Origin: Haliotis cracherodii
Taxonomy: Eukaryota
Length of the DNA stretch: 64,000 nt
Direction: 5' to 3'
NCBI RefSeq assembly: GCF_022045235.1
Contig: NW_027266267.1
Coordinates: 17,422,001 to 17,486,000, forward strand
Under the pieces are notes generated by a model that was not told where the DNA came from, made no database searches, and was given only the letters and a program-made list of their open reading frames with translations. How positions within the stretch are numbered: position 1 is the first letter of the stretch; each line of letters opens with the position of its first letter. Made by a program: the position numbers and the translations under genes. Shown piece by piece: positions 18,980 through 64,000 of the stretch.

Positions 18980-19894
18980 TTACTTGTTTCCACAGTCAGG
19001 ATCTGAAACCGCATCACATATATTGAAGGCCAGAAACGTAATTTCATATGTCACATTAGTATTTCAGAATGTGTCAAAAGAAACAATAATACATAGTAAA
19101 TGAATTATCAGGGCTGAGGAGGACAAACAGGCTACTGTTTGAAACTACTTCTGGTATACAATATGATATGCGAGCTATCATATTCTAAGTGGTGGTTACC
19201 TTTAGGTTGAGCGTCGCTGTTCTGGTAAGGAGATGAGCTGATGGACTCGTAAGATGCAGGAGCGGCTTCAGTCATGTCTTCGTAGGTACTTGTCTCTGCT
19301 TTGGGCTCGACTGAAAATATGACTCGTAACTCATTTCCAAAGAACAAATTGAAATGTTATAGACTCGTCTGAATGTAACACAACGTTAAATAGCATTCCT
19401 ATAAGCTGACAGTACTGAGTTTACGATAGACACCTGTTATGTATAGAGAGTGTCAAAGTATCCATCTACCATTTGTATTTTCATAAATCTTCAACTGTGT
19501 GTAATGTTGGTTTTTAGACGTCTCTGTATCCATGCTTGAGAAGTGTGCTGGACTGTTGATTTGATCTGTAACAAATCAATATGAACATGTAATAAAGGTA
19601 TCAGCGCGGAGTAGGCACAGGCATATTCGTGGCACAGGCACAATCTGTCTGACCGACAATGTTGACTTCAACCTACCCAAGGATGAATATCCTATGTTTT
19701 CCAATTCTTCAATTTCAGGATTTCTCGTGCTACAAAAGTAAGAAAAATCGTTTTTTGACAATCAATAAAGGAAAGGGCCACCTTCATATATGATTTTTGT
19801 TTCTGATTAAAAAGGACATTTACCTTATATCAAAGGACATTATTTCAAAACGTTTTATTCATTCATGAAGTGTACCTTTTTTGTGAAGTAGTTG
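18980..19894 (-). CDS. Gene D cytoplasmic exons (19, 53, 96, 111, 23 nt)
   Basis: ATTSQK-STRNPEIEELENIGYSSL-DQINSPAHFSSMDTETSKNQHYTQLKIYENTN-VEPKAETSTYEDMTEAAPASYESISSSPYQNSDAQPK-DPDCGNK*. Confidence 0.88.
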
Positions 19895-22800
19895 CTGAAA
19901 AATAGAGACTTCATATATAGTACACTGTAATGCACATATTACAAATGAGAATGTGAAATGTTAGACGTTAATGACTAAATAAAACAACATACTTCATAGA
20001 AGCAGTTACTGGTGCACTACAGTTTATGTTGTTATTGATTCTATATACATTCCCAAACTGGATGTGCTCATTCACTTTTACACACATCATTCATGTATAA
20101 TTATTGACGTCACTTTGAAAGGAAACATCCCGTCTGTAAATATCACCACACCACTTCTGATTCTACCTGTAATAATGTTACGAGGTAAAAAAGAGATTTG
20201 ACAATATACCTTTCAAAACGTTTCCAAACCTGAATCCATGCCTATAGAGGACCGTCAGAACTAGTCCCCCTATCAACAAGGTGAGAAGGAGGGTTCCTAT
20301 TATGCTTCCTGCTATTACACCTGCCATGTTATAATCGGCATTAAGCGGTTGTTGTTTTAGGGGACCTGTAGTATAAAATGAGAATCGCATGAAAGTATTG
20401 ATTATTTCATATTGTGAATATTATTTCATATATTGAAGATGTGAAGCCGCCGATCTACCGTCACTTTTTGGTGGCTGATTAGCGTTACATCATTTTTTTA
20501 AATTGTTTTGACGAATGAGTGAAACACAACAGATGTGGTGAACATTATTTTGGGGGGGATTCGTGGCAATGCTGTCAACTCGTGGCATGACCAAGGATCC
20601 CTGACTTTGGACAGACTCTATCCTCTATTCATATTTTGATGAGGGGGAATTAATCTCTCCAGAAACAGTAAAAGATACCCACAACTGACATTGAATGTCC
20701 TGACATCAGAGAGATTGTATGTCCCATACTGCCACGCCCCCAGACACTGACACTGCTGACTGTTCTGACTCCTGCTGACAGTGAAGGAGAGAGTAGATGT
20801 CCTGGTCTGACCACTGTCACTGACCAATGCTACTCCAGTCCCCGGACAGGACCACGTGATAGTAGCTAGAGGATTTCCTCCTGTCACCGAGCAGCTGATA
20901 GTCTCCCGGTCTCCTTCAAACATCAGAGTCTGAAAACTTGTGATAGAAGGAGGGACGGGTGGGGGGTCTGAAACAGGAACAACCTAGACGACTTCTATAA
21001 ATGACAATGCATGAAGTAAGAGATGCAACAGTGAGGACTGACTATATAAGACTGAACGTATCACAGTAAACCTTCTTAGTTTATCATCATATCGTAAACA
21101 GAGTCACAACATGATGTCCAGGCGTTGCAGGGAGGAAGAGTTGTGCATGAAGATTCAGTTTTGTAACTTCTAAAGGAACTGATAAGTTCCCGAATGTTCT
21201 GGATAATTGGAAAACATCTTTGAACACTCACATTTGACATCCAGTGACACAGAACCAGTGTGTGTTGCCGATGTTCTGGTGTTCCTGACCTGACATCTCA
21301 CGGCTGTCTTGTCTTTATTAGGCTTGAAGGTTAGAGTTTGGGACCACCTGGTAGAGGACCTTGACACAAACTGTGTGTTGCCACCTACAGGTGTTCCATC
21401 ACTGTAGTCCCAGATGAAGGTCGGGTTGGGATAAGCGGTGGTAGTACAGGTCAAAGTCAGGTTTCTGTTCTTGAAAACTAAACTGCTGTCTGGCATTGTG
21501 ACGTCAACCTGTTCTGGTCCGACTGGAAAACGGAATATTGAAATATATAACTACTGTGTTGCCTGATTACTGCGTAGCCCTGACAGACATATGTCAACGT
21601 CCACGGAAGCTATAGCATTGCTACATCAGACCGTATCTGAACACTAACTCATACATATCTACTACATTAAACATTCAGTGTGGCTGCCTACAGACACCAA
21701 TCTCCAATCTGGCTCTGTGAGATTTAACGTACTTTTACAAAGCCTCTCGCGTAGTTCTGATATATAGTCTACTGTCACAGATGCTCTACCATTGCTCTGA
21801 TGGACCATGTCTGATCCCCTAATAGATACATTTCTGCTAACGACGAACCTGTAGTGTAGCACTGTTAGACTTGGACTCCTTGCACCAAACCTGATAGATA
21901 CATGTTTACTTACACAAAACCTTCATTTCGGTTCTGTTAGACTGTGTACATTCGCCAAACCCCCAGTGTGTCTATGTTAGGCTATGTCTACTTACACCAA
22001 CCCTCCAGTGTGGCTCTGTTGGATTGGGTCTACTTACACAAAACCCCAAGTGTGACTTATTAGACTATGTCAACTTACACCAACCCTCCAGTGTTGCTCT
22101 GTTAGACTGTGGTGATGTCTGACCGTTGATGTTTTCAGCCTGACAGTGAATGCTCCTCCCCTGGTCACTCCTACTGACAGTGAATGTAATGGAGCTCGTT
22201 GTCTTCACCAGGACACCAGATGTCGTCTCTGTGCTGACAGTAGGAGTGGTTCCTGGTGGCAAGGTCACCCATGTCACAGAAGAAGTCGGGAAGCTGGCTG
22301 AAGTCACACAGGTCAAGGTCAGCGGTTGACCCGCCACTTGTCCTATCTCCTCATTATCAGCGTTGATGTTCGTCAGTGTCACAGAGTTTACTGGGACTGT
22401 AAGACGTGAATACATTGACATTTGGCATCAATTAGCTGTCCTTTATATATCTAAACATTGCCTATTGCCTATGATGTTTTTTTCTACCATGACATGTTGG
22501 AATCCTGAACTTGATTGGTCTGCCAGGTGTGTGGAATCTACATGCTTTTGCTGATGAGTGAATTGCCGCAAAAGGCACTATTTCTCAGAAAGCACTTCTT
22601 ACACAAAACCGACGAGTAGGAAATGTATATTTAGCACTAGTAGATTACAAACTGTGAGGTCGTGTTTGCCGGTTCACAGTGTTTTGGCATACGTGTCAGT
22701 AGAACAATATAAACTCATAAGAGTGGTGTATTTGTTTAGAACTAATTGCTACAAAGGTTGCCTCCCTCAGTTTCCCCAAATGAAACTGTATGGATAATGA

Positions 22801-25373
22801 ATACAGGGAATCTGCTAGAGGGTTGCGCTTTCCTATTTTCGAGAGAGTTAAATACAGGAAGGTATGGTTTGAATTACAAAAGCAGGATTACCATCAATGA
22901 ACTATATCAACATGGTGACAACTTCCATTCAACACAACTAAAACATTACACTTGACCAATGCAACGTAACTCATCACTTTACCTTTACATCTTTATTACG
23001 AAAAAAATAACACTGAAACTATAACAGGTTCATCTCCTAATTCTATAATTGTTATTTGTATTAAAATCGACCGTTTAATATATTGTGAATGCTAATACCG
23101 ACACAACTATGTGTGTCTCAAATCAAGGGATACTTACAAACATTGAATTCCACCCAAGTATGTGTATCATTTCCCATTTAGTATTCATTGACATGGTCAA
23201 CGTTTCCCTTGTTCAGGCATAAAAGTAAAATAGATCCCGCTTCGTAACTTCTTATTTCTGGCATCTATGTCATATTTTAAACGCACTGAATGAGAGAGAT
23301 TCAGTGCGACATACACAGATAACCATTTTGAAAAGTATTGTGAACATCCAAGAATTTTCCAAGAACTCTTTTTGCTTTCGGCGACGTCCAATTTTCTTTT
23401 TCTTACTGCTACAATACGGGCCTTGAGTCAACAACAGGTACACTTGGAGTTGATGTGCACTCACCAGGGAACTGTATTGTATTTGAAGTGACAGACTTAG
23501 TGTACGTGGGCGGGTCAAAGGAGTCGTGTTCCACACTGACAGTGAGAGACACCTGTCTGTTGTAGAGACTGGCTGTGTTTCCTGGTAGTAACAGTGAGTT
23601 GGTTGTCTGGACCTGGCCTGATGGACATGATCCCTGGGAGGAAGATGTACTGCTGGGGAGGACGCCCCTCACACTCTGTAAACATATAGGATGGNNNNNN
23701 NNNNNNNNNNNNNNNNNNNNNNNNNNNNNNNNNNNNNNNNNNNNNNNNNNNNNNNNNNNNNNNNNNNNNNNNNNNNNNNNNNNNNNNNNNNNNNNNNNNN
23801 NNNNNNNNNNNNNNNNNNNNNNNNNNNNNNNNNNNNNNNNTGTCCGTTTCACGAACGGACGGACCAATGACATGAGCTCATTTTGTCGATGCCGAGGTGT
23901 AAAGGACCATGCATCATACTAAATCATGTATGTTGATGAAATCAAATATACAAGATGGTCTACGACGTCAAGATGGACATACAGTTGCTACCTGATGGTA
24001 TCTCCATGTGATGACGGCGGCAGGGGGAGCACACGGGGTGGTCACTGTGACGGATATGTTGTTTTGTGGGGTCACGGAGGACCGGAGAGAAGTCAGTTGT
24101 GGAGAAAATGTCACAGAGCTCCAGTCCAAGACAGCTGGTAGGAAGGAATGATATAATGATAATCCTGATAGAGATCTTTCAACGTCATCAAAAGCCACAC
24201 AGCCCAACCACTCAAGAACAGATATCAATACAGGAACACACTATACGGCCTCTGTGAATAATTCACCGTAGACACCTTGCAATATAACTTTCTGAAGTTG
24301 TCAACAGTTCTGTCATCACGTGACAAACATGTCCATACTGATATTTTAATGGCGAATTATCAAATATTAACATTCTAAACTGTTTCACAACAATGTAAAT
24401 ATTTTTTAGATAGTTAACACTTGTACTATCTTCCCAGACACATGAAACTGAGCGTTCAACATGAAACTGAGCATTCAGCATAAAACTAAGAGTTAAACAT
24501 GAAATTTATGTGGGGAGGGGGAGGGGGGCAGCATCACATGCCTCGACGTTTGCCTGTATATTGACACGAACCATGAATAAGTTGAAATACTTTGGGGGTA
24601 AACAATGTAGCATTAATATTGTCTGATGTATGACCATGCAGAACATTTACTTATAATCTTGACACATATGAAAATAACACATGTATACTCTGGTTGTATT
24701 AGGGACCACAAAGCTTAGAATTATCAACCATTATGAATATGGACATGTTAGTTATCTTCAACCACTGAATTAATAGCGATTCATAAACACACTCTGCAAC
24801 CAAAATACATAAATTCATAGGGATTCATTAACACGTGCTTATGAAATAGTATGAATCATGCAATGAACTCTCTTTTCTTATGATTATGTAACAGTTTGTG
24901 TCAATTTTGTTTACATGCAAGAAATGTATTTTAATCAGTTTCTCTGTAAGTTTAGATGTGCTGTCTACTCTCGGATATAGTCGATTTACAAATACGTTTC
25001 TTTTCTTATCCACAGTTATCATGTTTTCATTTTTCAGCAAGTGATTAAAAAAAATAAAACCCGCCTCCAAACTGTGACAGCGTGATGGTATTTGACACTG
25101 TGGTACCAACAGTACATCTCCATATCCCGCTGTCTCTGGTGGAATCTGGTGATGCGATGTCAAGAGTCAGGATCCTGGATGTACTGTCCAGACTCACAGA
25201 GTATCCTGAGACAGGTGTCCGACAGGTGCCTGATGATGTGCAGGCTCCCTGGATAGAAGTATCCTTATAGAAGTAGACAATTCCACTGAGAGCCGCATCT
25301 AGTGTACAGGTGATGCTGAAACTGACACCCTCCACAGGAACACGTCTGTTGGTGGCAAGTACTGGAGCTGACT
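18980..25373 (-). CDS. Gene D: type I membrane IgSF receptor (5 Ig, TM, tyrosine-motif tail); leader exon not securely located
   Basis: Exons 25065-25373, 23992-24134, 23465-23675, 22079-22396, 21232-21522, 20683-20967, 20210-20365, 19876-19894, 19677-19729, 19470-19565, 19200-19310, 18980-19002 join in frame (about 671 aa plus leader). The Ig1 donor is non-canonical GC. Confidence 0.85.
20210..20365 (-). CDS. Gene D transmembrane exon
   Basis: CPLKQQPLNADYNMAGVIAGSIIGTLLLTLLIGGLVLTVLYRHGFRFGNVLK. Confidence 0.9.
20683..20967 (-). CDS. Gene D Ig5
   Basis: 285 nt; TISCSVTGGNPLATITWSC...QCQC. Confidence 0.9.
21232..21522 (-). CDS. Gene D Ig4
   Basis: 291 nt; LTLTCTTTAYPNPTFIW...VRCQVRN. Confidence 0.9.
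21680..22110. repeat. About 41-bp degenerate tandem repeat built from the gene D Ig3 exon 3' end and donor
   Basis: ACTTACAC at 21908, 21990, 22032 and 22073. Confidence 0.8.
22079..22396 (-). CDS. Gene D Ig3
   Basis: 318 nt; LTLTCVTSASFPTSSVTW...IHCQAEN; paralog of B Ig3. Confidence 0.9.
23465..24134 (-). CDS. Gene D Ig2-like domain, split across two exons (23992-24134, 23465-23675) by a phase-0 intron
   Basis: Phase 1-0 and phase 0-1 exons with canonical sites; ISVTVTTPCAPPAAVITW...GSCPSGQVQTTNSL...VSLTVSVEH. Confidence 0.72.
25065..25373 (-). CDS. Gene D Ig1 (V-like, extra Cys pair, WRC)
   Basis: FSITCTL...GACTSSGTC...LTLDI...DSGIWRCTV; donor AG|GCGGGT. Confidence 0.83.
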
Positions 25374-27299
25374 CTGAAACGGTATGACTTGGAAGTTGCA
25401 TGTTTCTTATGTTGTTAGTAAGTGAGTGAGTGGAGTACGGAGTAGTGCTGCTATGAACAGTGTTTAAATTATGTGTGTTTGTTTGATGTTGGAGGAAAGT
25501 GATGCATGTCTTATACGTTTACCACTTTTGTGAGGCCCACGAACACGGGTATTGTGCTTGCGAAGGGCGAATTTATAATTCGAACTAAAAATTATAGGTT
25601 AACGTCACGCCTGATATAACGGTCGCACTTCTACACAACACATTGTGACCACTGTGCCACACATGCCCGTCATATGTTGTTGTATAAATAACCAATGTTG
25701 ACTGCTTTAAATATATACCACAAGCGCTACCATGTCCATGTTCAGCACATTCATATTTCAGAAATTGATGTTCATTGTTTTAGATTTTAAAAAGATTACA
25801 TCAACGACTATGCCAAAGTATCTGTCTGCATCTTGTTTTCTTTTTTTGCATTAAATAATCAACTATTGTCAAAATAGGGCGTAATATACAGTTCTGAAGA
25901 TCAGGTTTTTATATCACACTATTTGAATATCAGGATGTGAGCATGAATCGGGTTTCATGCCGCTCTGAATATCATTTCAGTTACAAATCTGGGGGTCAGC
26001 CTACTTTAGAGCAGGTATTGAGCTGATCTGTGAATCCTAATCGGGGCAGGAAAGAGAGCAGGAAACTCCACACTTTTATGCTGATATTTGTGTGCCAAAG
26101 GCCAACATGTCTATGACTAGAAATGTGGTATGACAAGCCAAATCGGTCAATGTTACCTTGTCCGTATTCACCAGGCGACTTATTCACGAAGCTGCCCAGC
26201 TGAGACGGATTTTCAAGCTGTCTTAAACCTTACGCAACGTTATCTCACTTGTGACAACACTTTTATCTACGACAGTGAGCTCTTTTGTGACGGCGGTGAA
26301 ATAAGCTGGGCGTTCCAAATGACGACAAGATAATGCCGAAGGAAAACGAAAATGTGACAAAACATACATGCTTGATTACGTAGCAACAATCGCAAAATTG
26401 CGACGCGTCGCAACACCGTTGTTGTTGCAATATTGGGTCTCACAGTTTCCGACGTTCTTTTCATTCGGTTTAAATTCTTTTGCTACGGAAACTATCTTTA
26501 AACAATACACGTGCAATGCTTAACCTTAGAAAGAACAATTCCATTCAACAATTTTCAACTCAAATAACAGCTTGTCTCAATGCCACTCAGTAAAATTAGA
26601 CAACTGATATTGTTTACGATATTACTTCGGACTGCAGCTTGCAATAATAATGCTATCCCGGGGCTAGTAAACAATCACAAGGACAAGCCTTTGGACACTA
26701 TGACATTTGATACAATATTCGTATAGATACTGATTTTATTTAACGTTGAAAAAGGGTATTTGTGTATGTCTTTTGAGCATCTTAAAAAAAAAATATATCT
26801 TCAAGAAGGTTCGCGATTTGAAAATCGTTGATGCCTATTTCATCCTTGAAAGTTTCACAAACTAAATAAAAAAAGAACTTTGTAAATATCCTGTATTCAT
26901 GTATATTTCATTGTGATAGATTCAAGAGTCCTTGTGAATACCTTTAAGCTTAATCTCCTGTAAACTGTCACAATGTGGGATCTCACATTTAGCAGAAGGG
27001 AAACTATCTGCCAGGACAAGATATACGTGCATTATATATGTAGGGTCAAATGTCAAAAACTGATAGATTGCATGAAATATTATTGAACAGGCACCTATTT
27101 GCTCGATGTGAAAAGGAAGTCTTGAACATATACTGCCCAAAGTTTGCTAAGGATCATCACTTTAAAAGGTAATACGTACAGTGGTGTGCATTTGTTGTAA
27201 TAGCCATAAGTAATGTTGCGTGAAGACACGTTTAATGAACAAATGCCCCTTGCCATGGGCCACACAATGCCACAAAACAACATTTTGCCACAAAAGCAA

Positions 27300-28137
27300 A
27301 AAATTAAGTATCTCATTAAAACTGAAACGTTAAAAAATCACAAAAACAAATAATTCTATTGTCGAAAAAACAACACTCTCCGGAGGGCTTATGTGATTCA
27401 CGTGATGCGATCACAGCCTGGCACCGTCGTCTCATGCTCCCAATAAGTGTCTGGATGGTTGCCAAGGGAAGATTGACCCAGTAAACACGACGATCTGTGA
27501 AGTCTAGACAGTATCCAGAATTCATCCGTGAACAGTACTGGTTTGTCCAGTAAACGAGGTCTTGATCAGCCCAATACAAACGTGCCTGCTTGTGATTTCG
27601 GGCTAGTGGGGTGCGAATGCAGATGGTGTCTTGCTGCAATCGGGAGAAACCTGTCTTCCTGCTGTGTGGTGGAACGCTGTCGTCCACGTGCATGTCACTG
27701 GGTAGCTGATACAAACATGTGGTTTCGATTCCATGCCCTGCTGATCACACGTTGGCTGACACCAAAGACGTTTGCAACATGACGTTGCGTTGACCAAGTT
27801 TTAAGCATGCCAATGCATGTGCCTAATTCGTCGGTCGTCAAACGACGTCCTTGACATTGAGGGATACATGTGCATTCAGTTGTTGCATTCAGTCCTAGTA
27901 ACAAATGTTGTTGTGCTCTCTGGTAATGGTGTACAACGATTATGTCATTATACATCCAAACACAGGTGTTCAAGCACCTCGTGCACAGTGAATGCATGCC
28001 TCTGTCCTTTCCTCATGAAAGTGCAGTCCTATAGGGGTTACCCAATCATTGTGTACCAGAATATTTCAATCTGTATTTGTTGGATTTAATTTTGATATCA
28101 TTTAAACTTGATCCTATGCATACTTTGAGTAGTATAT
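27300..28137 (-). mobile_element. Highly degenerate, internally deleted Tc1-like transposon
   Basis: Fragments IGML..QRHVANVFGVSQ..ISR (HTH) and LIGSMRRRCQAVI; terminus ...GAGTAGTATA. Confidence 0.72.
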
Positions 28138-29866
28138 AACAATGAGACATACATACTTGAATCGTTTACTTTTGTCATTCGTAATGGAATATTCATTCAT
28201 GAACTAATGATTTCCATACAGCATGCTATCTAGTGACATGTTTACGTGTAATCAACGAGGTGCTCATTCCATTAGACGCTATATATGTCATACGTTGTAC
28301 TCGTAGTCAAAGGGAAACCACTCTCAATCTCCATATACATTAACTGCTCTTGACAAGACAAGGTCACGGTCATTGCGATAGTATGTACATATACTGCTAG
28401 TGTTTCAACCGAAATATACGAAACGGTAATATACTATGTTGCTTCACGTAACATTTGCATGGAATCATTGTGGAACTGTCATCTGCCATCGACTCACTGT
28501 TAGGCAGAAGTCATAATCTCAGCGGTGTTTGTTTAGATCTGTGGTTCGTGTTTTGAAAGTGCTAATAGAAAACACTCGATCTTGTGGTCAGAAATGATAC
28601 ATTAGACCCATACTGTCGAATCGTTTTCTTCAACATGCCCTCTTTGGGCCGTCATTGCACCAGTCGTAAGCTCCTACAATACGTCCGAAACTGTCTTAAT
28701 TTTTGCCATAAACGTAAGACAGCTTTGCGTTTTGTTTATAGGCCGCCAGAGAGAAAAGCATACTACAATGCAGATAATACCAAGCACAAGGTTAGGTAGA
28801 AGTTATGTATACTGTCAACACGACCAGAGGGTCAACGAGTGCATACAACGTAGAGTACATTTGTTATATAGAGAGATCATGTTATGTATAATCGTCTATG
28901 CGTAGCATAGGCATGTACTTACCACAATGTTGTATCCCGCCAGGATCCATCAGAATCAGTAGTGAAAACACCCATCGACTCATTTCAAAGACTAAAGCTT
29001 GCAGCCCACCAACATGCACAGGGAGAGGCGTTATCTGTATAGCTGATAATATCTTTACTTCCGGATTTACCACAGGTAGACTACATTGTATATATGGTGT
29101 ATGAATATTCCCAGTACACATATCAGATTTCGAGATCTCCAAATGTATGTGAATTACACTGGGTCGATATACACTATATGATGACAACGTAAATGCTTAA
29201 CAAGGCTGATTTAATTGAAGAGTGGCATGAAGTGAAGCACAACAGTTCAACAGATAATTTCTCTCCTCACTAATTTAAGTTTCATTGAATATCCCTTTTT
29301 ACTATAATAAACATCTTTGTATATACAAGGCAATTGATCAAAAATGGTTTAAAATCAGGTGCACAAATGTTCACAGATTTTATCGTTTGAAATATCACTG
29401 TTGGATTACACAAAATGAAAAAAAAGTATGACAGAAATTGCATCCGAAACAAGATAAACTGAATTGAAATTATGATAGATCTGCACGAGATCATTAACTA
29501 TAGCAGAAAAAGGGAAAAGAGTAAAGTACAAAACAGGTTATCCAGTAAAAAACCTAAAAACCGTCATTTAAAAACGTGAAAATATACATCTGTGTAATTT
29601 AACTGAATTATTATTTATGAAAGCATACCCGGTCTGGCATCAGCTGATTATGGTGGAGTGTTGAACGCTAAGACCGCACATGATAATCACATGATCTACA
29701 ACATAAAACTTATTCATGCTTAAATATTCATCGCGTAAATCATTCAAAATCCGTTTCAAAACTCTTGGTTCCTTGGTATTTACTTTAAATAGAACAATGG
29801 TTACTGTTCAACCTTAGGATGGTGACCACGAAATAGACTTCAGAGTGCAGTTTAGTTTAGACTTGC

Positions 29867-33179: not shown

Positions 33180-33212
33180 GTATTATTATAATTATTATTA
33201 TAATTATTATTA

Positions 33213-38535: not shown

Positions 38536-38681
38536 CTGCAAAAGATGAAGAATGTCTACATTGTATTTAATAGTAAACACATGACGAATATATCGTATGT
38601 ATAGTGAACATGCTGCACAGGGAGATTATGAAAAGTAAAATGACAAAAGAGGAGTCAGAAGCAACCGTTTCTTTTACAAGT

Positions 38682-38716
<35 letters not shown>

Positions 38717-44700: not shown

Positions 44701-45926
44701 TGACTTGACCACTGTGTAGGTGGAAGGCAGGCCAGATATTGATGGAACAGCTGAAAGAACATGGTGCAGGTACTACAGTCTATCCTGAGACGGGATGACT
44801 CGATCACTCGGTAGATGGACGGCAGGCCAGATATTGAGTGGACATCTGTTTGTTGGAATATTCATTTCATATGTTGTGTCTCATATGAATACAGTTCGAT
44901 CAGTTCCCACAACAATTTAACGGATCTTTCACTTGATGTTATACAATAATAACTGTTTACACATCACATGATACTTAAAGACATAAATTGGAGCCTTTGT
45001 TTTGCGATAAATGTCAAAAGAATGCTGAAGTAAACACCCCATATACATTTTAGAATTAATGAACGAATCAATTAATCAATAATCAATTAATGTGAGAAAT
45101 AGTAACAGAATGAGGGGTTTTATACCATATCAACTATTTAGAGCGATATTTACATACTCATATATGTCATTTGACGGAATCACCATGTGTATTATCGGAC
45201 ATGTTCGTTATAGGTGTTATAGGTGGAATACTGCTAAACCGTTTAGGTCGTTTATGATGTACATAGCGTATTTGGTTTGTTGGTTGGTTGGTTTGGTTTT
45301 AACGCCGCACTCAGCAATAATCCAGCTATATGACGGCGGTCTGTAAATAATCGAGTCTAGACCAGACAATCCAGTGATTGATATCATAAGCATGGATCCA
45401 CGCAATTGGGATCGATGACATGCATAAACCAAGTCAGCGAGCCTGACCACCTGATCCCCTTAGTCGGCTTTTACGACAAGCAAAGTCACCGTTTACGGCA
45501 AGCATGGGTTGCTGAAGACCTATTCTACCCCGGAATCTTTACGGGTCTTTGGTATTACATCATCCCCAATATATTGTTTTAAATGATGCATTTTACACGA
45601 CCATACTTAAAGCAGCATAAGACCATACTCACTCTCACTCGCCTTGGAAATATTCATGTGTTCACCATTCATGCAAATTTGTGAAACAGTGTGAACATTT
45701 GAAATTCGGAAGGCAGGCCTTCTCGAAATTATTGACATTTTAATTTGTCTTATTGGAAACATAGACACCAACAATTCCCCTTTCATTCAAGCATTTGATT
45801 TAGTAAAGCTGTGACTAATGGGATCGGGTGACCAGGGTCACTGACTTGTCATCGTATCAAGTATCGATGTTCATGATGTCAGTCACAGGATTGTCCGTTC
45901 CAGACTCGATCCTTGAATGCGACAGT

Positions 45927-45994
<68 letters not shown>

Positions 45995-49579: not shown

Positions 49580-52500
49580 AATATGCAAATACTACATCTT
49601 TGTCATCTCTGTATACGAACTTTCGAATGATTTGGGCAGAAGAATGTCGTGAACATAGCCTGTGTGTTCTATCAAAATGTATATTCAACTTGATGTTCAG
49701 TCGTGATGTCTTGTACCATATGTTCCTATTTTGTTCAGGTGAACAGTTGATTTTCGTTGCATGTGTTTGTGATCAGTGCCACCGGTTGTGCAGGATACGC
49801 TCACCTTTTAGCGAACACCTGATATCATACTATTTGATAGTGATTCATAAACACATGCCCATGATATAGACGGAAATGTGCAATCGACTGTGCTTGATTC
49901 AGAGATTTGTATTGTATGTGGAAAGGGTTTTGTTGCTTTAATTCATAAATGATTCTGTGTGCCAGAAACCTGTGGTCGTTGGTCATGACACCAGGTAACA
50001 CACGCCACTCACACAATGTTCTTGAAAAATAAGTGTTTGCTTGTTGCAATACAACTGCACGAGATGGCAATATTCAGCCACCATACTTTACACAGGAGGA
50101 GGCAGCCCAACGAATGCCATGCAAACTCTCAGATTTCACAACCCTGTGTTATTGTATCGTGCCCCAACCTTCAGGCGTCCGGTCCCTGTGCTGACTTGAA
50201 TACTCTCCAGATTGCCTTTTCTGTGCATATACAAAGACCAATACAAAACGCGATTAATCTGGTTCCTTGTCACCGACCTTAGCTTACAATATGCCCATAC
50301 AGGTGACTCGTTCGTGTTCAGAGCAACCACACGAGCATCAATGGCTTCACTCTCACAGTCAACATGGCATTCAAAAGACTGAATAGATAAGGGGCCAATT
50401 ATTAGTTGCAATATTCTGTCTCCTGCGATAGCCATTCGTTAAACATTATTCACAACATGTATGCATTAACAAATGGCTTGAAACTAGTTTACTATGACTA
50501 GACCTTTGTTATGCGAGGTAGGCAGTTCAATGAAGATATACAACATGACAAAACCATAAGATCCCTAAACGTGGTTGGTTGCCTGGACATTATTTTAAGC
50601 GTTTCTTGCTGAACCGGGGTTAAAAAATCATTTTGGAAACCCTAATGCCCACAAGTATGGGATGATCACACTGTCATTTTGAAACCTTGTAGATTCAGTA
50701 GTTTATTTGCGGTTGTGAACGAATATTCAGCATGGTGTTTCTAGATTGTTTCACATATCAAAGGGTGTCCACTGGAGAGTATAACAGCGCAACAGACTGA
50801 CGACATATTTTAGATAAATCTATCATCACAATGAAGCGGTGCAGCAGAAATTGATACATTCAACATGAAATAAAGTGTATATACATGAAATTAAAAGTGA
50901 ATTAATTCCTTTCACTGCCACCAGCGTGGAAGGATAGACCTACCTTTTGTTGAGCACCTGGTATTATCACTATTTGATAGTGATTTCTTTACATATGCTT
51001 ATGAGATACTCGTATACGTACAAGGATATTTTATGAAAAGTAACGTATTACTTTAATTCACTACAAAAGTGAATGGCAAACATCAATTAAACACTATTTA
51101 TTTATTGTGAATCATTGTTTATTTCCTGTAAGTATTGGATCCAAAACAAACAAGGCAATGAAGGTGCCTCTTTATAACCTATAGTAAGCAAAATATATAT
51201 TAAAATGCGATACTGAAGCATATACAACGTTAAGCCATGTCTATATGTCCTTATAAGTAAGGCTCAACGAGAATGAATACAACATGTATAAAATGTCAAC
51301 AGACAGCCGTTTCACTTTAGACCTGCACACCAAAACACCGAACTATCATATAGACCACTATATTATTTTGGAAAATCAAAGCTAATGGCAAACTTTGTCA
51401 TTCATTATGTAATTGCCTTTACTTCACATTTTGTGACATTTAAATATGTTATATCGACGAAACAACACGTTTTACGCTCAAATGATTGAACTATGTAAAT
51501 TTACAGTCGCGACAACACACTTGGCTGCTATTGCCGTAATGATCAGTCAGGTGTGTGTGTTTATGGAGCCCACAGGGTGTTAAATAGCATAACCTGGGCT
51601 CACAGACATGTTTGTATAACAAGCAATCTGATCAATAGCTCAAGATCGGGGACGATTATCGCCGGTATCAGTCTTGATAACTTTAGGAAGTTGATCCCTG
51701 TAGATCAGCCAGTGGCCACGCTGGACAAGCACAAATGGAGTATGATGTAGTGTGGTCATATGAAAGTATGACATTGAAATGTTAATTTTGGTAGGCTAGC
51801 TCTTCTTGCAGGATCTCATTACAGGCTATAAGTGAAATCTTACAATGTTTTAAGCACTAAATAGGACCGCTATAAACGGTGAAAAATTTGGCTTTTGGAG
51901 ATCATTCATAGTCAATCTCCTCGCATGTGTTCATCTGCTAAACAGGTAATGACTCAACTTTTTGTAAACAAAGTTATGAAAAGGGGACACAGAAATTTAG
52001 TACTATAAAGTTTGTGTCAGTCACGTAATCCCATGCAAGTGTTGGGGATATAACAATATGTTGTGCTATTTAAGAAATAAACGACGAGAGTGAGTGCAGT
52101 GCAGGGAGAAGAAACCATGATGGGTGCAGTGTTTTATCTTATGATAAACAACGACCACGAATTATTATCGTTTATTTCGTAAATTTGATATCGATATTAT
52201 GCACAGCCTCTCGAAGAGTGATGATAAAATTGTGCAACTTTAAAATATGTTTACACGTATTTTAATAATGATGACTCCAACAATAAAATCCGACCACGGC
52301 CATGTCGCTCATGTCCATGTTATGCACAGGTCGGTAGTTCTCGTATATTCTTGCAATCGTAAAATTGATTATCTTTACCTTTTTCCAAAAAACGATTGTC
52401 ACGCTTTTGGGTGCCATCGTTGGGCGATCGGGTTTTTCTGCATTGCCAATCTTCATCCATGGGGCACAAATCACTAGACACTCCCCTCCCATCAAGTGGT

Positions 52501-52763
52501 GAGCGCATGCTCGAATGTCCAGAAATGACGTCATATTATAACAATGTGTTTATCATGTAATACACTACTCTTTGTTCTTCATTGTCGTTTTTTTTTTTTT
52601 GGCGTAGCTATCTTATATATGTCAATATAATGCAAAGCAATAATATATTGAATGATAAAGGCAACAGTCATATGTTACTATATACTATATGAAAGGTAAA
52701 CATAATTTTCAGTTCACGCTCTGTGTTTTTCCCTCCAGTGATATCTTCACATCTACTTCTTGT

Positions 52764-53655
52764 TTACTTGTTCCCATAGTCAGGATCTGAAACTGCATCT
52801 CATGGAATGAAGACCCGGAAACTAATTTCAAAGTTGTCAAACGATGACAGGGTAAACGTGTTGTACACCAGGACACAAGAGGGTGGGATTTTGAAACTTA
52901 AATTACTTCTGGTATACAATATATAATGCAAGATTTTAATTCTTTTCAGGGGTATAAATATTCTGAATAATGGTTACCTCGAGATTGACCGCCGCTATTC
53001 TGATATGGAGATGCGTTGATAGACTCTGGAGGAGCTTCTGTCATGTCTTCGTAGGTACTGGGCTCGACTGAAAATGTGATTCGTAACACATTTGCAAAGA
53101 ACAAATTCAAATGTTACACATCCTTTTAAACGTAACACAAAGATGAATAGCACACCGATGATCTTTCAGTACCTTCACTGAGTTTATCGATTGAGAACTG
53201 CTATAGTATATAGAACATCAAAGTATCCATCTACCGTTTGTATTTTCATAAATCTTCAACTGTGTGTAATGTTGTTTTTCCGATGCCTCTTTATCGCCTG
53301 GGTACTCAGCTGGACTGTTGACGTGATCTGGAACGAATCCATATGAACATACAATAACGGTGTTAGGGCGAAGTAGAAACAGTCATATTTGTGAACAAAA
53401 CAATCTATCTGACGAACATTGCTGACTTCAACTTACCCAAGGATGAATATCCTATGTTTTCCATTTCTTCTATTTCGGTATTCCTTGTGCTACAAATGTA
53501 AAGTAAGGTCCGTGTATGGCATTTTATAATGGATAGGAACATCTTCAATGTATGATTTGTTTTGTGATTTTAGAGGACATCTACCTTATTACAAAATAAA
53601 TTATTTTAAAACGTATTATTCATACATTTAGTCTACCTTTTTTGTGAAGCAGTTC
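52764..53655 (-). CDS. Gene B cytoplasmic exons (19, 53, 93, 90, 23 nt)
   Basis: GTASQK-STRNTEIEEMENIGYSSL-DHVNSPAEYPGDKEASEKQHYTQLKIYENTN-VEPSTYEDMTEAPPESINASPYQNSGGQSR-DPDYGNK*. Confidence 0.88.
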
Positions 53656-56600
53656 CTGCAAAGAAGAGAATGCATTACATAGTACCCTGTAATACACACA
53701 TTAAACATGTTGCAAAGGGATAATATGATATGTGAAACCTTAATGACTTAATACAAGAAACATCGACAATTTGTGCTATTATTAATTCCATATACATTCC
53801 CGAACTGTATGTTCTCATTCTGGGTCAGTGATGATTTTGATTCGTACGTAACTTTGACGCATATTATTCATGTATCTACTGAAGGCACACTGAAATGAAA
53901 TATCGCCACATCATGTTTTCACTCAACTTGCAATACTGTTGAAAGGTAAACATGAGATTTAACAACATACCTTTCATGATGTTTCCAAACCTGAACCCCT
54001 TCCTATAGAGGACAATAAGAACTAGTCCTTCAATCAGCAAGGTAAGAAGAAGGGTTCCTATCGTACTTCCTGCTATTACACCTGTGATGTTATATTCGGC
54101 ATTGAGTGGTTGCTGTTTCTTTGGACCTGCAGTATAAAATGAGTATTTTATGAAATTAGTATTGACTTCTCTTTTACTGAACACAGATTTTTGTATTTTG
54201 ATCATGTGATGAGCTTGATAAAGGTGTCATTTACATCAAACAGGCTTTATACTTCAAACTTTCTGAATGAGGGGGAGTTACCAATTGTACCTATCAATCC
54301 CTCCAGAAACAGATAAAGGTACTCACAGCTGACATTGAATGCCCTGACATCAGAGAGGTTGTATCCTCCATACAGCCATGCCCCCTGACACTGACACTGC
54401 TGACTGTTCTGACTCCTGCTGACAATGAAGGAGAGAGTAGATGTCCTGGTCTGACCACTGTCACTGACCGATGCTGATCCAGTGCCGGGACAGGACCACG
54501 TGATAGTAGCTAGAGGATTTCCTCCTGTCACCGTGCAGCTGATTGTCTCTGGGTCTCCTTCAAACATTAGAGTCTGAAATTTTGTGATGGAAGGAGGGGC
54601 CGGCGGTGGGTCTGAAAAAGGAACAGCCATGATAGTAACTATACACAGAAATGCATAAAGCAGTGGAGAACATGACACTATCTGGAACATTTTACAAACT
54701 GGCTTAGTTAGTGTTATCCACAACAAAAAGAAGTTATTTCATCAAACAGTGTCCACTATACATGAAAGAGTCGGTGGTTATATTATCTTTATATATCACT
54801 TTGCTCGCTCCCTATGTTTACAATGATATACAACCTTCACATGTGCTTCAAATGAAAATCTGAACTGCTCTTAACAAACTGGGCACACTAATGAACTCTC
54901 ACACTTGACATCCAGTGATGCAGAACCAGTCTCGGTTGCTTTGGTGTTTCTGACTCTACACCTCACAGCGGTCTTGTCTTTATTTGGCCTGAAGGTGAGG
55001 GTCTGTGACCACCATGTAGAAGATCCTGTCACAGACCCCGTGGTGCCCCCTACAGGTGTTCCATCAATGTAGTCCCAGGTGAAGGTCAGGTTGGGATAAG
55101 CGGTGACAGTACAGGTCAAGGTCAGGTTTCTGTTCTCTAAGGCTACAGTGTTGTCTGGCTTTGTCACATCCACCTGCTCTGGTCCGATTGTAATACAGAA
55201 CAGTTACCTTTGACATCAATGTTATCTTAACCTCTCACTGCATTTGTAGTACTGCTTTGACAACATGTCATATCCGATATAGTATGATTTGAACCTACAT
55301 GAACACCTACGTCAATTACTATTCATCGTAGTTCAGTCTCATGAAGGAGTTGATCTCGCTGTCTAACTGACGAAAATACTCACTTTTCACCTATGATATT
55401 TTGTCTTGAGTGCCATATTACTGGATTGACTAAATGACTCCCTGACTGCAAACAACTGTATCCTCCCAGTGCGACAATAAGGCAATGGCATGTATAGAAC
55501 AGTAGTTATTGACTGATTGACTGATATCACATGAATGACATACGAATGTGTGACAACAGAGAGTTACTCACACCACACTCCCACCCGGGCACTGTCAGAC
55601 TGTACTGGGGAGGGGGTGTGGATGTTGGTGGCTCTACAGTAGACTTTGTGGCCCAGGTCACTCCTGACAGGGATAATGGTCACGGTACTTGTTGTCTGGA
55701 CAACACCTGATTGGGATGTGTGACCATTGGATATCCCACTTGCCAACGGAACACTGTTCTTGAACCACGTGACAGTAGCAGCAGGGTAACTGGAAGAGGT
55801 CACACAGGTCAAGGTCAAGGGTTGACCCTCAGCAGCTCCTACTTCCTGGTTGGCGGATGTGATGTTTGTGAGAGACACGCTGCTGACAGCAACTGCATAG
55901 AAATTGATTTAATCACAACTAGTGTATATATCTGTCATATTCAATAACGTAATGTCGAAGGCATAAAGGTAACTATCTACAATATTTATGATGTGGAGGG
56001 AACATTGCTATTATATTACTTACTGTCAGGATAGGAATACGTGGAGTTGACACTTGTCTGTGTGTTGGATGCCTGGCAGTAGTACAGGGAGTTCCTACTG
56101 GTGCCTGTCAGCTGGTAGTTGATGGTGGCTGTCCAGCCAGTGTCTCCCTCCACTGCTACTGGGCTGGTGGCCACACTCATCCCGTCTCTGTACAGCGTCA
56201 TGGACGGCGGTGGATTGGAGACAGCAGCACAGGATATAGACATTGTAGTTCTTGTTATGGTAACATTGCTCAGAGGAACTGAAATAATAACATAGTTTTA
56301 TAAAGTGTTGGTATCTATTTAAGACGACGGTGGGTTGGAGACTAGTGCATGTGAGACTGATTTCGGGAACTGAAATATCAACATAGTTTTATGAAGTATT
56401 GTAATGAGTTGGAGAAACAGGTGATATATGTTGTAGGTCTAGTCATGGTAACAATGTTCCGGGAACTGACATAATAACATTATCTTTGGTGTATCTATGT
56501 AGGATGGTGGGGCAAAACTGCAATATCAGTGGTTAATATTGGGAAAGGGAGGTCAGTCTAATTTCAAACGGGAGCTATCTCCGTTGTTTTCGTATTTGCG

Positions 56601-59600
56601 AGCAATGGCGTCACCGACGCTGTACTTTGTTGGTCCAGCTATTAAATGCCCAGCTTATCCCTACGGTAAAACGTATTCTTAATTAAATGTTTAAATGCAT
56701 TATATTTATGTTTCCATCCGTACACCTTCTGAGATTGGTTTAGTGCTGATAACCATTTTCCAAAATGTGGGCCCACATCTTTTCCGTCATCTTTGGTGAT
56801 CGAAACAAGTGGGCCCACATTTGTATTTCGCCTAGCTTCGTTAGGTTGTTTCGTTAGTTCTGATAATCAATCCCTAAATGTGGGCAGACGTTCTTTCGTC
56901 ATATTGCTTGCAACAGGAGGGACCACATTTATTAATCGCGAAATTCTACTTAAATATTGATAATCATGGGCCTACATTGTTCCCGTCATATATGGTGATC
57001 GAAACAAGTGGGCCAATATTTGAATATCGCCTAGTGGGTAGACGTTCTTCCGTCATAGTGCAACAGGAGGGACAACATTTAAAAATCGCTCAGCTTTATT
57101 AGCTTGGCTTACTTATAACCATTTTTAAAAAATGTGGGCCCACATTGTTCCCGTCTTATAGTGATCGAAACAGGTGGGCCCACATTTGTAAATCGCTGGG
57201 TTTCATTGGGTTGACAAAGTCATTTCAACTAGTGGGCTCACATTTGTCATTACTTTTCATGGGTATGTGACATTTTTTATTATTCATATTTTGTAGTGGA
57301 AAATGAAGGAAAGAGTAGATGTCCTGGTCTAACCTGGGACGAAATTATTTCCCCTAACGTCGGAAGGCACAACAAAGGGAGGTAACCTGGTTTCGTAATG
57401 GGTATATAAGTACAAGCGGAAAGTTGAAACTTCATTCTCAGGTGCGGTGCAGTCGAGGCTGGCTATATCAAACATGTTCGGTTATCTATGCTGCCGATTG
57501 AAGTACACATCGGTTGAATCTAAATTTGTTATTATTTGTGTGTGAAGTAGATGCAGCTGTCCATATGATGATCAGGATGTTATGCGTTGCTTGCAAGTTG
57601 TGCTGGCGAGCCATGATAATACGTTGTGAGATGGATCAGTGTCCATAGTTAAAATCTGGAACAGTTGGTTGCGAGAGTATGGATTTGGGATATACTCTGA
57701 TGAGTATTCGCTGACGAGCCATAAGAATACGTGATAAGGCGTCGATGCCTGTGTATATGTATACGTTGCAAATATGAAGCATAGAATATATTCATGTAAA
57801 TTACAGTTGGTTGGTTGATGGTCATGATGCTGGTGATGCAGCCGATGTTCATGATAATGTGAATACTTGTTGAAGAATAAACTGCGGTCAGTCAGTGCAT
57901 CGTACAGTATCCCAAAATGTTGTAGTTGTGTATTTTGTTGTGTTAAGGGGGAGAAGGAGGAGAAGTTCGTAATGCGGGTTCGTTTACATAGACATATTCT
58001 CAACAACAAGTGCGTTTAGTTTCCAATATGGGCCCACCTATGATTTTTCGATTAGGCAAACGGAGTTAGCTCCCTTCTCGAACCACCGATAATGCGGTTT
58101 CACCGATGGTGGTGATGGTCACCTGACATACTAACCTGATACATCCATTTGTAAATGGTTACTCCCTGCATACTGATAGTCATACTGTGGTTTAAGCAAA
58201 CGTCCACAAAACATAGCTACCTGATACATGCATTTGTATCGGGTTACTCTAAACATAATGAAAGACATACTGTGGTTTAAGCAAACATGAACCCACTTAA
58301 CTGATACATCCATTTGTATCAGGTTACTCTCTGCATATTGAAAGTCATACTGTAGTTTAAGCAAACATCCACAGAACATACTTACCTAATACATTCATTT
58401 GTATCGGGTTACTCTATACATTCTGAAATTCATACTGTGGTTTAAGCAAACATCCACAGAACATAGCTACCTGATACATCCATTTGTATCGCGTTACTCT
58501 ATACATACGGAAAGTCATACTGTGCTTTAAGCAAACATTCACAGAACATAGCTACCTGATACATCCATTTGTATCGCGTTACTCTGTACATACGGAAAGT
58601 CATACTGTGGTTTAAGCAAACATCCGCAGAACATACTTACCTAATACTTCCATTTGTATCGGGTTACTCTATGCATACTGAAAGTCATACTGTGGTTTAA
58701 GCCAACATCCACAGAACACGGTTACTGATACATCCATTTGTATCGGGTGACTCTATACATACTGAAAGTCATACTGTGGTTTAAGCAAACATCCGCAGAA
58801 CATAGCTACCTGATACATCCATTTGTATAAGGTTACTCTATACATACTGAAAGTCATACTGTGGTTTAAGCCAACATCCACAGAACACGGTTACTGATAC
58901 ATCCATTTGTATCGGGTGACTCTATACATACTGAAAGTCATACTGTGGTTTAAGCAAACATCCGCAGAACATAGCTACCTGATACATCCATTTGTATAAG
59001 GTTACTCTATACATACGGAAAGTCATACTGTGGTTTAAGCAAACATCCCCAGAAGACGGTTACTGATACATCCGTTTGTATCGGGTTACTCTATACATAC
59101 TGAAAGTCATACTGTGGTTTAAGCAAACATACACAGAACATACTTACATAATACATCCATGTGTATCGGGTTACTCACTGCATATTGATAGTCATACTGT
59201 GGTTAAAGCAAACATCCACAGAACATACTTACCTAATGCATCCATTTGTATCGGGTTACTCTATACATACTGAAAGTCATACCGAAGTTTAAACAAACAT
59301 CAATAGAACATAGTTACCTAGCACACTTATGTTTAGTTGGTTGCTTTGTCTGCCACCAAACTGATAATCACATCTCCAGCTGAGTGTGTCTCTGCCGTAT
59401 ACGGCGTTGTTGATGGTGAGGGTGTAGTTGGTGGAGCTGGGGCAGGAGGTGGTGTAATCAGTTTGGACAGATGGGGAGGTGGAGCTGCAGCTACCCTGGC
59501 TATTTCTGTAGAATGTAGTTCCATTCTGCCACTGTATAGCTGTATGTGAAGCTTCTCCTGTGTAACACATCAGAGTACAGCTTCCCCCTTCCAGCACAGA

Positions 59601-60448
59601 ACCTCCACATGATGACGTCAGCTGATAGTTCTGGGCAGTAACTGAAACCGTAGTAAATATGTTGTGAGATGTTACATTGAGGTTCACAGAACGATGTCTA
59701 ACCCGATGTTCCGAGATATTGACACAAGCATTATGCTTGTAAGCTACTGGAAAAGAACAACTTGCGAACAAAATCAGAATGGACTATTATAGGCAAAAAT
59801 ATCTGCACTTTTATCTCTTACTACACGTCTGATGTCTCATTCATACACGGTTTGGGGCAACATGCGGTTCAGCTGTCTCTGACACCCCAATTTGCTTTGT
59901 AGAGTTGCATCCCTTTGCCGTGCCAGAAACATACGATCGTGGGTTCGAATTCCAGTTCACCCTCATTATGTCTCTCACACCTGCGCTCGTGGCTTTCACC
60001 AAAATGAATGCGTAAGACATACATTCTGGCTTACCTCCTTCATCAAGCTGACACGCTGATCTGTAAGTGAAATACTGTTATTAAACGTCTGAGACCTGCA
60101 TCACTTCAGGCTTTCCTCCCACATTAAGGTGACACGCCGTGATATGACTGGAACACTGTTAAAAGCGGCGTTAAACCCAACCCACTCACTCACTCACTTT
60201 ATTATCGACATGCAGAGGTAGATGTACATAACCACTGACATATACGTGCAATCTACTTCCTGGTTCTATTTTCAACCACTGTATGTGTGGGAACTGAGTG
60301 TGAGATTCATTTCGTTACCCCTGATGCAATAATATTAACACACATAAACCACAAGCAGTCAGATAGTGTACTTACCCACGTGTTTGTGACATATGTCCAC
60401 CAAGAGAGCTCCAACTGTGAGGATGAGACGGGTGTACAGCATGGCCAT
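52764..60448 (-). CDS. Gene B: type I membrane IgSF receptor (signal, 5 Ig, TM, tyrosine-motif tail), about 658 aa; exon 5 acceptor mutated
   Basis: Exons 60376-60448, 59318-59641, 56024-56278, 55572-55892, 54903-55187, 54327-54611, 53971-54126, 53637-53655, 53437-53489, 53235-53327, 52978-53067, 52764-52786 sum to 1977 nt, an open frame ending in TAA. All junctions are GT-AG except the exon 5 acceptor (AA). Confidence 0.88.
53971..54126 (-). CDS. Gene B transmembrane exon
   Basis: CPKKQQPLNAEYNITGVIAGSTIGTLLLTLLIEGLVLIVLYRKGFRFGNIMK; hydrophobic helix followed by a basic stop-transfer segment. Confidence 0.9.
54327..54611 (-). CDS. Gene B Ig5 (membrane-proximal)
   Basis: 285 nt; TISCTVTGGNPLATITWSC...QCQC; nearly identical to gene D Ig5. 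Confidence 0.9.
54903..55187 (-). CDS. Gene B Ig4 (open frame, but the acceptor reads TTACAA rather than ..CAG)
   Basis: 285 nt; LTLTCTVTAYPN...FTW...VRCRVRN. The paralogous exon in gene D (21232-21522) has the canonical acceptor. Confidence 0.75.
55572..55892 (-). CDS. Gene B Ig3 (C2/CD80-like)
   Basis: 321 nt phase 1-1; LTLTCVTSSSYPAATVTWFK...VYCRATN. Confidence 0.9.
56024..56278 (-). CDS. Gene B Ig2 (short C2-like)
   Basis: 255 nt phase 1-1 exon; SISCAAVSNPPP...LYYCQASN. Confidence 0.85.
56570..58074. mobile_element. Probable non-autonomous DNA element with 16-bp TIRs and internal GTGGGCCCAC palindrome repeats (gene B intron 2)
   Basis: GGGAGCTATCTCCGTT ... AACGGAGTTAGCTCCC (15/16 inverted match); no clear TSD. 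Confidence 0.55.
58130..59320. repeat. 84-85-bp tandem repeat, about 14 copies, abutting the gene B Ig1 donor
   Basis: CATCCATTTGTATCGGGTTACTCTATACATACTGAAAGTCATACTGTGGTTTAAGCAAACATCCACAGAACATAGCTACCTGATA units; includes a 169-bp higher-order duplication. Confidence 0.95.
59318..59641 (-). CDS. Gene B Ig1 (V-like, 6 Cys, WRC F-strand)
   Basis: TTTCAG acceptor, GTAAC donor, 324 nt; CTLMC...IQW...YTLTI...DTLSWRC. Confidence 0.88.
60376..60448 (-). CDS. Gene B exon 1, signal peptide MAMLYTRLILTVGALLVDICHKHV
   Basis: ATG, hydrophobic core, phase-1 donor G|GTAAGT. Confidence 0.8.
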
Positions 60449-63231: not shown

Positions 63232-63327
63232 CTAACTATGTTTTGACTCAAAGGAAATGAATGTCATATGTTGCACGTGTTCCTTGGTCTGTTACTGCAT
63301 CTGATATCATGAATTCTTCCTTCTTCG

Positions 63328-64000
63328 TTACTTATTGTCATGGTCAGTACCTGAAAAGTATAGAACTACATGTAAGTAAACACAGATTATATGACAGGTT
63401 TTATATCACTCACAATAACATGACATGCTAAACGTGTCACATTAGGATTGAAAAGAAGACATATGCTTCGGTTTAATGCTTCTGTACATGCCCACAGTTT
63501 GCCCATGGCAATGACATACGATTCCAACCAGCAAGAGTGTTTCATGTTTTGGTTACCTTGAAAATGTGCTCCAGTGTTCTGGTATGGAGATGGTTTGATG
63601 GACTCATAGGTCACAGGGGGAGTCTCTGTGATGCCTTCATAGGTGCTTGCAACAGCTGCAGCATCCGCTGAAGATATAATTCATTACGTATTACAACAAC
63701 AAATCCGAATCACAACTCCCTTCTTCTAACTAGCACTTCAATATTACCTACACTGGAATGCTTAAACTTAAACAGTATTGGGGAAAAATGCAAAATCTAT
63801 ATCAACCTTTTGTATTCTCATAAATCTTCAACTGTGAATACGGTTGTTTTTCTGATTCCTCCAAATTTGAATACTGGACTGGTCCATTTATTTGATCTGA
63901 AACAAAACAATGTGAAAATATTGTATTGATTTTAGTGCAAAACAGTTCCATATATAATGGTAATTTCAACAAAAGGGAAACACCCAGTACCTTGTACATA
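63328..64000 (-). CDS. Gene A (partial): 3' cytoplasmic-tail exons of an IgSF receptor paralog with two ITAM-spaced tyrosine pairs
   Basis: Exons 63807-63896 (DQINGPVQYSNLEESEKQPYSQLKIYENTK), 63557-63667 (ADAAAVASTYEGITETPPVTYESIKPSPYQNTGAHFQ) and 63328-63350 (GTDHDNK*), all AG/GT bounded with phase-1 junctions and homologous to the tails of B-D. A possible end of the preceding exon lies at 63984-64000 (YKVL, positionally equivalent to YSSL). The rest of the gene is beyond the window. Confidence 0.88.

Follow-up and report, generated by a model that had tools for sequence, protein, structure and literature searches.

Four immunoglobulin-domain receptor genes of Haliotis cracherodii belong to a large abalone array with a labile tail motif

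Does an alternating order of two kinds of receptor gene record the duplication of a two-gene unit? The question is raised by a 64,000-nucleotide stretch of the genome of the abalone Haliotis cracherodii (GCF_022045235.1, contig NW_027266267.1, positions 17,422,001-17,486,000 of the forward strand; hereafter the window), where the tails of four genes, A, B, C and D, are encoded on the minus strand, A and C with tails of type 1 and B and D with tails of type 2. The initial annotation proposed that one gene with an intact ITAM (immunoreceptor tyrosine-based activation motif) plus one with a broken ITAM were duplicated together as an activating/inhibitory-like pair. The four genes are members of an abalone array of about 50 genes for cell-surface receptors with immunoglobulin (Ig) domains, and the more interesting feature of this undescribed array is a labile middle tyrosine motif. 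The cassette exists in several copies, some genes are mosaics, and the middle motif has been lost repeatedly while the motifs on either side of it hardly vary. We consider it likely that A, B, C and D represent four old subfamilies of single-pass abalone receptors with five Ig domains, with or without FN3, that recur as a four-gene cassette of a large tandem array, and that they signal through tail tyrosines with the middle YxxL as an ITAM on/off switch.

A four-gene cassette in a large array

The genome contains at least 49 matches to the transmembrane (TM) exon, nearly all on the same contig at 12.4-17.9 Mb, and 45 matches to the tail of gene A. The shared motifs from which the alternation had been read are all in place: YSQL..ENTK and ETPPVTYESI in gene A (63840 and 63626) and gene C (37887 and 36241), HYTQL, STYEDM and DPDYGNK in gene B (53271, 53059 and 52787), and HYTQL, STYEDM and DPDxGNK in gene D (19506, 19290 and 19003), with the caveat that the DPDxGNK-like last exon has a homologue in gene A too. 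The order type 1, type 2, type 1, type 2 is likewise present. Two genes of each type alternate in two of six random orders, however, so that four genes alone show nothing beyond chance, and in the contiguous minus-strand run of 20 genes or remnants between 17.81 and 17.44 Mb the type-2 tails belong to numbers 5 (a remnant), 14, 18 and 20, with alternation only in the last four.

The unit that recurs is not a pair, as had been supposed, but A/X-B-C-D. A complete collinear copy lies 3.2 Mb away at 14.18-14.26 Mb, with spacers at 75-93% identity; across the B-C spacer, positions 50095-55198 of the window match 14236163-14241229 at 86.7%, and the A-B spacer and gene D are collinear as well. All seven B-type genes or remnants come after an A- or X-type gene, and a C-type gene is next in four. 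Partial cassettes comprise A'-B' at 17.53-17.56 Mb, where 21053 of 22001 bases (96%) align to A-B at 94-98%, A'' followed by a B remnant and C', A-B-C' on the plus strand, and X-B-D. Several array copies carry stops or frameshifts (B' has a stop in Ig5 and A' in tail exon T2), and the C' genes are mosaics, with the 5' half of C on an A-like 3' half. No further family exons were found in the 89 kb left of gene D.

Named homologues are all Haliotis proteins (21 of 21, 18 of 18, and 31 of 31 for the tail region), no bivalve protein being among the 31 tail matches; other library matches, at 22-40% identity, reflect generic Ig similarity. All four V types are present at 72-80% identity in H. rubra and H. 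asinina, which are distant species in the abalone study PMC12627906.

Divergence within and between the types

The predicted ectodomain of gene A, with Ig and FN3 domains as in gene C, was recovered: it reads V-Ig-Ig-Ig-Ig-FN3-TM, that is, five Ig domains and an FN3. Amino-acid identity between A and C is 28% in V, 31% in Ig2, 41-49% in Ig3, 88% in Ig4, 84% in Ig5 and 64% in FN3. The common Ig3-Ig5 ectodomain and alignable tail introns claimed for B and D are also present, the introns at 70.6% over 1584 columns (52685-54165 with 18906-20401); the proteins share 35% in V, 29% in Ig2, 45% in Ig3, 76% in Ig4 and 89% in Ig5. Genes A and C can be aligned in their exons only, and the tail introns of C do not align to those of A. 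That C-D is a recognisable copy of A-B does not hold. The alignment covers only 3718 of 22001 bases (17%), and the A-B spacer has no alignment to the C-D spacer, on which ground a recent block copy was rejected.

Divergence is uneven along each gene. In V, synonymous sites are saturated for both pairs. For TM and tail together the synonymous divergence (dS) is 0.61 +/- 0.12 for A-C and 0.45 +/- 0.09 for B-D, values that are not different, compared with about 1.0 across types. The dS of A-C is 0.28 in Ig4 and 0.29 in Ig5, but 1.16 +/- 0.29 in the adjacent FN3, and that of B-D is 0.17 in Ig5 versus 1.9 in Ig3; Ig4 and Ig5 values range over 0.17-0.48, against 1.16 in the FN3 alongside. The V domains have the highest ratio of nonsynonymous to synonymous divergence in each type (0.50-0.81 versus 0.25-0.46).

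A tree was built from 45 TM and tail sequences out of 49 TM loci, those at C38 414k and at C4 15788k, 16710k and 17178k being dropped for missing exons and more distant tails, such as that of P0033, lying outside it. One clade (100/99) is made up of the type-2 tails, and another (99/92) includes A and C, the separation that the initial annotation expected; approximately unbiased (AU) tests reject A and C (p 3e-5) and B and D (p 1e-44) as sister genes. Across species, Ig3 groups by type (100/100), and Ig5 (98/98) and the tails (98/98) group by lineage. Homogenisation of the B and D tails within lineages means that a block duplication cannot be dated from tail resemblance.

These patterns are consistent with a mechanism in which unequal crossover would multiply and delete cassettes, gene conversion would homogenise the membrane-proximal Ig domains and tails within each type, and the N-terminal V domains would stay distinct and evolve fastest, as expected of ligand-binding ends. 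We lean slightly towards an ancient duplication of a type-1/type-2 pair, its record overwritten by conversion, as the simplest source of the 1-2-1-2 order in the cassette, since A-C and B-D diverge in parallel and a spacer element precedes A, follows D and is also found in the B-C spacer. That this element flanks many other family genes counts against such an ancient block. If real, the duplication is possibly older than the abalone radiation.

The labile middle motif and its possible meanings

The tails carry three consecutive YxxL motifs. The outer ones persist in 43 and 44 of the 45 tails, with two and one changes, and lie 22-25 residues apart in 44 of them (16 in one deletion); together with YxN they are the invariant motifs of the tail. 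YxN motifs bind Grb2. The middle YxxL/I is present in 20 of 45 tails and has changed at least eight times on a tree built without its codons, its tyrosine being deleted or giving way to C, H, D, N, F or T, and ranking among the three most changeable of 90 tail columns.

Scored as Yxx[IL]x6-9Yxx[LI], after a definition found in bioRxiv 10.1101/2022.03.04.482883, the spliced cytoplasmic tails of A, C, B and D contain 3, 2, 0 and 0 ITAM registers, which bears out the reading of A and C as intact and of B and D as broken. The first ITAM spans an exon junction, and its first half in gene A lies just outside the window (64002-64054). In gene C, whose tail is the most divergent of the 25-row type-1 clade, both registers run through YTSL and the second motif is broken too (FEGM). 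Gene B has YPGD as its middle motif and has lost the YESI tyrosine by deletion, and gene D has FSSM. At least one ITAM occurs in 2 of 16 tails of type 2 and in 21 of 29 others, a tally that is not an independent count, as kin share states. The pairing of intact with broken genes is not conserved between cassettes: the ITAM is absent from the C slot in three of the four cassettes with a C-type after a B-type gene, and one of five complete B tails has one. In other species the middle YxxL/I occurs in none of 13 type-2 and 7 of 15 type-1 tails.

Adjacent genes also fail the shared-ectodomain feature of paired receptors, in A-B as in C-D. The V domains of A and B give no match to each other, and no other pairing of A and B domains does better than E 0.001, which is generic Ig similarity. 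Gene C and its paralogues 14223 and 17715 have V domains 90% and 87% identical, with ITAM registers of 2 versus 0. Because the closest ectodomain paralogues of gene C are without the middle motif, better candidates for paired receptors lie across cassettes than side by side, and pairs with the same ectodomain and different tails (C and C') do exist across cassettes.

The two outer motifs, with the YEN/YQN sites found in every tail, would probably form a scaffold of SHP2/Grb2 type, to which the middle YxxL, where present (A, C), may add ITAM spacing for a kinase of Syk/Shark type; in the tails that have lost it (B, D, C', X, Y), a phosphatase-type output would remain. A gene of SHP2-like SH2-SH2-phosphatase form is encoded at G000:C15:9.89-9.91 Mb. 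IGYSS[LV], a predicted ITIM (immunoreceptor tyrosine-based inhibition motif), occurs in 11 of 11 tails of the B/D clade. A kinase gene with two tandem SH2 exons, an unusual arrangement, was seen at G000:C1:59.019-59.029 Mb (L111-L112). Its motifs appear Csk-like. PD-1 tyrosines Y223 and Y248 have a spacing like that of the outer motifs here; according to PMC7078208, SHP-2 has been argued to bridge two PD-1 receptors through one motif, so that motif spacing alone proves little. Positive selection for loss of the middle tyrosine was considered and not adopted: type 2 has 6 changes against 2.0 expected, a weak hint, and the overall rate is neutral-like.

Three other accounts of the locus were weighed. 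A pair duplicated as a block and since kept as a functional activating/inhibitory pair foretells the ectodomain of gene A correctly and accommodates both the parallel divergence of A-C and B-D, in V as in TM and tail, and the copies of the spacer element at about 70%; A-B itself is, moreover, a recently duplicated two-gene block. We nevertheless judge it quite improbable, given that among 20 successive genes or remnants (17.44-17.81 Mb) only four alternate, the C slot mostly has no ITAM, the ectodomains of A and B share only generic similarity, the spacers cannot be aligned, the spacer element is not peculiar to these genes, and gene D may be damaged. Nor do inhibitory motifs single out B and D, as their description as inhibitory-like would suggest: matches to the ITIM consensus [ILVS]xYxx[ILV] number 3 in A, 2 in C, 1 in B (IGYSSL) and 1 in D. 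The gene order could instead be incidental to birth and death, with the middle motif left over neutrally and every member an adhesion or guidance receptor of SHP2/Grb2 type. The automatic labels (nephrin-like, turtle-like, NCAM-like), the neutral-like rate at the middle tyrosine, the invariance of the outer pair and YxN, the stops or frameshifts and the best solved-structure matches, to the adhesion proteins MDGA1, SYG-2 and CADM4, speak for this, but these matches are weak and generic to Ig (best E 3e-12), the V domains evolve fastest, the tyrosine is kept in 12 of 15 type-1 tails of other species while no type-2 tail there has YxxL/I, and loss of the middle motif to HSHV is common to H. rufescens P0048; this account appears doubtful. 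Nephrin has eight Ig domains and an FN3, and turtle (IgSF9) five Ig and two FN3. Identity with nephrin, turtle or hemicentin was rejected, as the genes here have five Ig domains with at most one FN3 and all their tail matches are Haliotis proteins. A bolder possibility, which we hold to be unlikely, is a KIR/LILR-like complex of paired receptors in abalone, where one tyrosine codon, flipped at least eight times, serves as the switch, the outer motifs without it form a phosphatase-docking pair, and conversion shuffles tails under a fixed set of old, ligand-binding V domains, so that a chromosome variable between haplotypes would carry one receptor in both activating and inhibitory forms.

The preferred reading, of four old subfamilies in a recurring cassette with the middle YxxL as a switch, has its own difficulties, which should be set against it. 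The middle tyrosine changes at close to the neutral rate (10 changes against 7.8 expected overall, 4 against 4.7 outside type 2) and may be free of constraint; in H. rubra and H. asinina many tails of type 1 have YSNV, which is not a canonical ITAM; the ITIM counts do not favour B and D; and no Syk or Shark gene was recognised among 11 SH2 loci inspected, of 47 matches. A cross-species B-tail clade is rejected only weakly (AU p 0.047), and a D-tail clade, with one distant row, is not rejected (p 0.12). The near-identical A'-B' copy may be an uncollapsed haplotype, and gene order rests on about 1.4 Mb of genome, partly in 10-kb pieces, being known only within long stretches. Predicted exon joints, including that which creates the first ITAM, are present in contigs from coded sequencing runs (four of four runs on B, three of four on A). 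These contigs are mostly from paralogues or relatives, and the runs, which cover 7-10% of the words, are taken for RNA by guess, no RNA run being on record, so that they back the family's exon structure rather than the expression of these particular copies, and cannot rank expression.

Gene models and other features of the locus

All four genes share one series of tail exons: TM, an exon of 19 nucleotides (nt), one of 53 nt ending in YSSL, T1, T2 and a short last exon (Table 1). Genes A, B and C are open exon chains that agree with database models: P0052 has the tail and architecture of A, P0023 is the same protein as B, and P0040 matches C. Gene D is possibly damaged, because the donor after its V exon is GC where seven of seven paralogues have GT; its public model, P0066, spans only TM and tail. 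An AlphaFold model of gene B, with a mean pLDDT (predicted local distance difference test) of 53.7, was not used.

Table 1. Coordinates of genes A-D and of spacer features.
Feature	Position	Strand	Exons and remarks
Gene A (type 1), part inside the window	63328..64000	-	T1 63896-63807; T2 63667-63557; last exon 63350-63328
Gene A beyond the window (window-equivalent places)		-	53-nt exon 64054-64002; 19-nt exon 64237-64219; TM 64728-64567
Gene A ectodomain beyond the window		-	FN3 65457-65161, then Ig5, Ig4, Ig3, Ig2; V 71966-71628
Gene B (type 2)	52764..60448	-	leader 60448-60376; V 59641-59318; Ig2 56278-56024; Ig3 55892-55572
Gene B, continued		-	Ig4 about 55187-54903; Ig5 54611-54327; TM 54126-53971; no FN3
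Gene B tail		-	19-nt exon 53655-53637; 53489-53437; T1 53327-53235; T2 53067-52978; last exon 52792-52764
Gene C (type 1)	36172..47729	-	leader from 47729; V 46494-46138; Ig2 44750-44493; Ig3 44252-43968
Gene C, continued		-	Ig4 42581-42303; Ig5 40444-40148; FN3 39948-39652; TM 39123-38974
Gene C tail		-	38535-38517; 38085-38033; T1 37949-37854; T2 about 36280-36172; last exon uncertain
Gene D (type 2)	18980..28983	-	leader from 28983; V 25373-25065; Ig2 in two exons (24134-23992, about 23675-23465)
Gene D, continued		-	Ig3 22396-22079; Ig4 21522-21232; Ig5 20967-20683; TM 20365-20210
Gene D tail		-	19894-19876; 19729-19677; T1 19565-19470; T2 19310-19200; last exon 19002-18980
Cluster-linked non-coding element in the B-C spacer	50061..50985		about 70% copies upstream of A and downstream of D; also beside many other family genes
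3' flank of gene D	16034..18821		patchy alignment (69-74%) to the B-C spacer

The TM exons encode a mid-membrane glutamate in B (54126-53971) and C (39123-38974) and a glycine in A and D, a state that cuts across tail types in the family. Elsewhere on G000:C4, five genes at 12.41-12.56 Mb (L091-L097) have one V domain only, of a different kind, above a tail of type 2, and a library protein of this design has a Thr/Ser-rich stalk. Genes at 17.636-17.667 and 17.187-17.210 Mb have N-terminal domains of D type on an ectodomain that is longer, with a distant FN3 and a tail of a third and more divergent kind, resembling that of P0033, and many more Ig4 matches at 15.5-17.2 Mb come from further relatives. 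The C-D spacer holds a Tc1/mariner-like transposase remnant (31055-32335, minus strand), whose copies at C4:17.811 Mb and 14.432 Mb match it at 89%; smaller remnants of this kind lie at 27300-28000 and 40645-41700. Tandem repeats include a 40-bp minisatellite of 44 or more copies at 5027-7400, an 85-bp repeat present 14 times in the V-Ig2 intron of B (58126-59319), the period of which differs in the paralogue at 14.24 Mb, and a 95-bp repeat at the start of the Ig2 exon of C (44667-44848), in many copies in the paralogues at 14.231 and 14.460 Mb.

Comparison with known receptor systems

A common signalling tail unites about 50 genes, labelled nephrin-, turtle-, hemicentin- or CD22-like, in one family. 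If the middle motif acts as a switch, the array would offer a one-codon test of the interconversion of activating and inhibitory receptors in an invertebrate, as well as candidate loci for resistance to disease in abalone, both farmed and wild. The duplication of a two-gene unit is of less consequence, being an ordinary step in the evolution of a tandem array. The literature searched held no description of the abalone tail family, which the supplements of PMC12627906 and PMC9646362 may list, nor of any gastropod complex of ITAM/ITIM receptors; the word "ITAM" does not occur in the main text of PMC12627906. Ig-rich non-syntenic regions of abalone (PMC12627906) and pearl oyster (PMC9646362) are described there as duplicated Ig(+FN3+TM) clusters and proposed to widen the immune repertoire. 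These papers report Pfam enrichment or NCAM-like genes.

By analogy, the family may work like the Alr cluster of Hydractinia, the FcoRs of Botryllus, the oyster CgIgR and the paired receptors of vertebrates. Alr ectodomains have one to three unusual Ig domains. The Alr tails are described as too diverse to align (bioRxiv 10.1101/2022.03.04.482883), whereas the abalone tails are homologous and homogenised and it is the N-terminal domains that differ. CgIgR is closer in being molluscan, with five Ig domains, a TM segment and an ITAM, and it recruits CgSyk in haemocytes, but it is reported as one receptor with one ITAM, whose printed form is unlike the abalone tails (PMC6994640). The Botryllus FF/FcoR genes resemble the present array as receptors of the Ig superfamily with ITIM or hemITAM motifs that vary in copy number as neighbouring gene pairs; in those pairs, which are co-expressed, one partner has the signalling tail (PMC12065747), while abalone neighbours both have homologous signalling tails and the unit comprises four genes. 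With CD300A and CD300C the likeness extends to clustered Ig receptors, gene conversion, pseudogenes and the same ectodomain with different tail motifs, as in C and C'. Conversion is reported to keep the CD300 ectodomains alike while their tails differ (PMC12447643); in abalone it would instead homogenise the tails and proximal domains, leaving the putative ligand-binding ends of adjacent genes unrelated.

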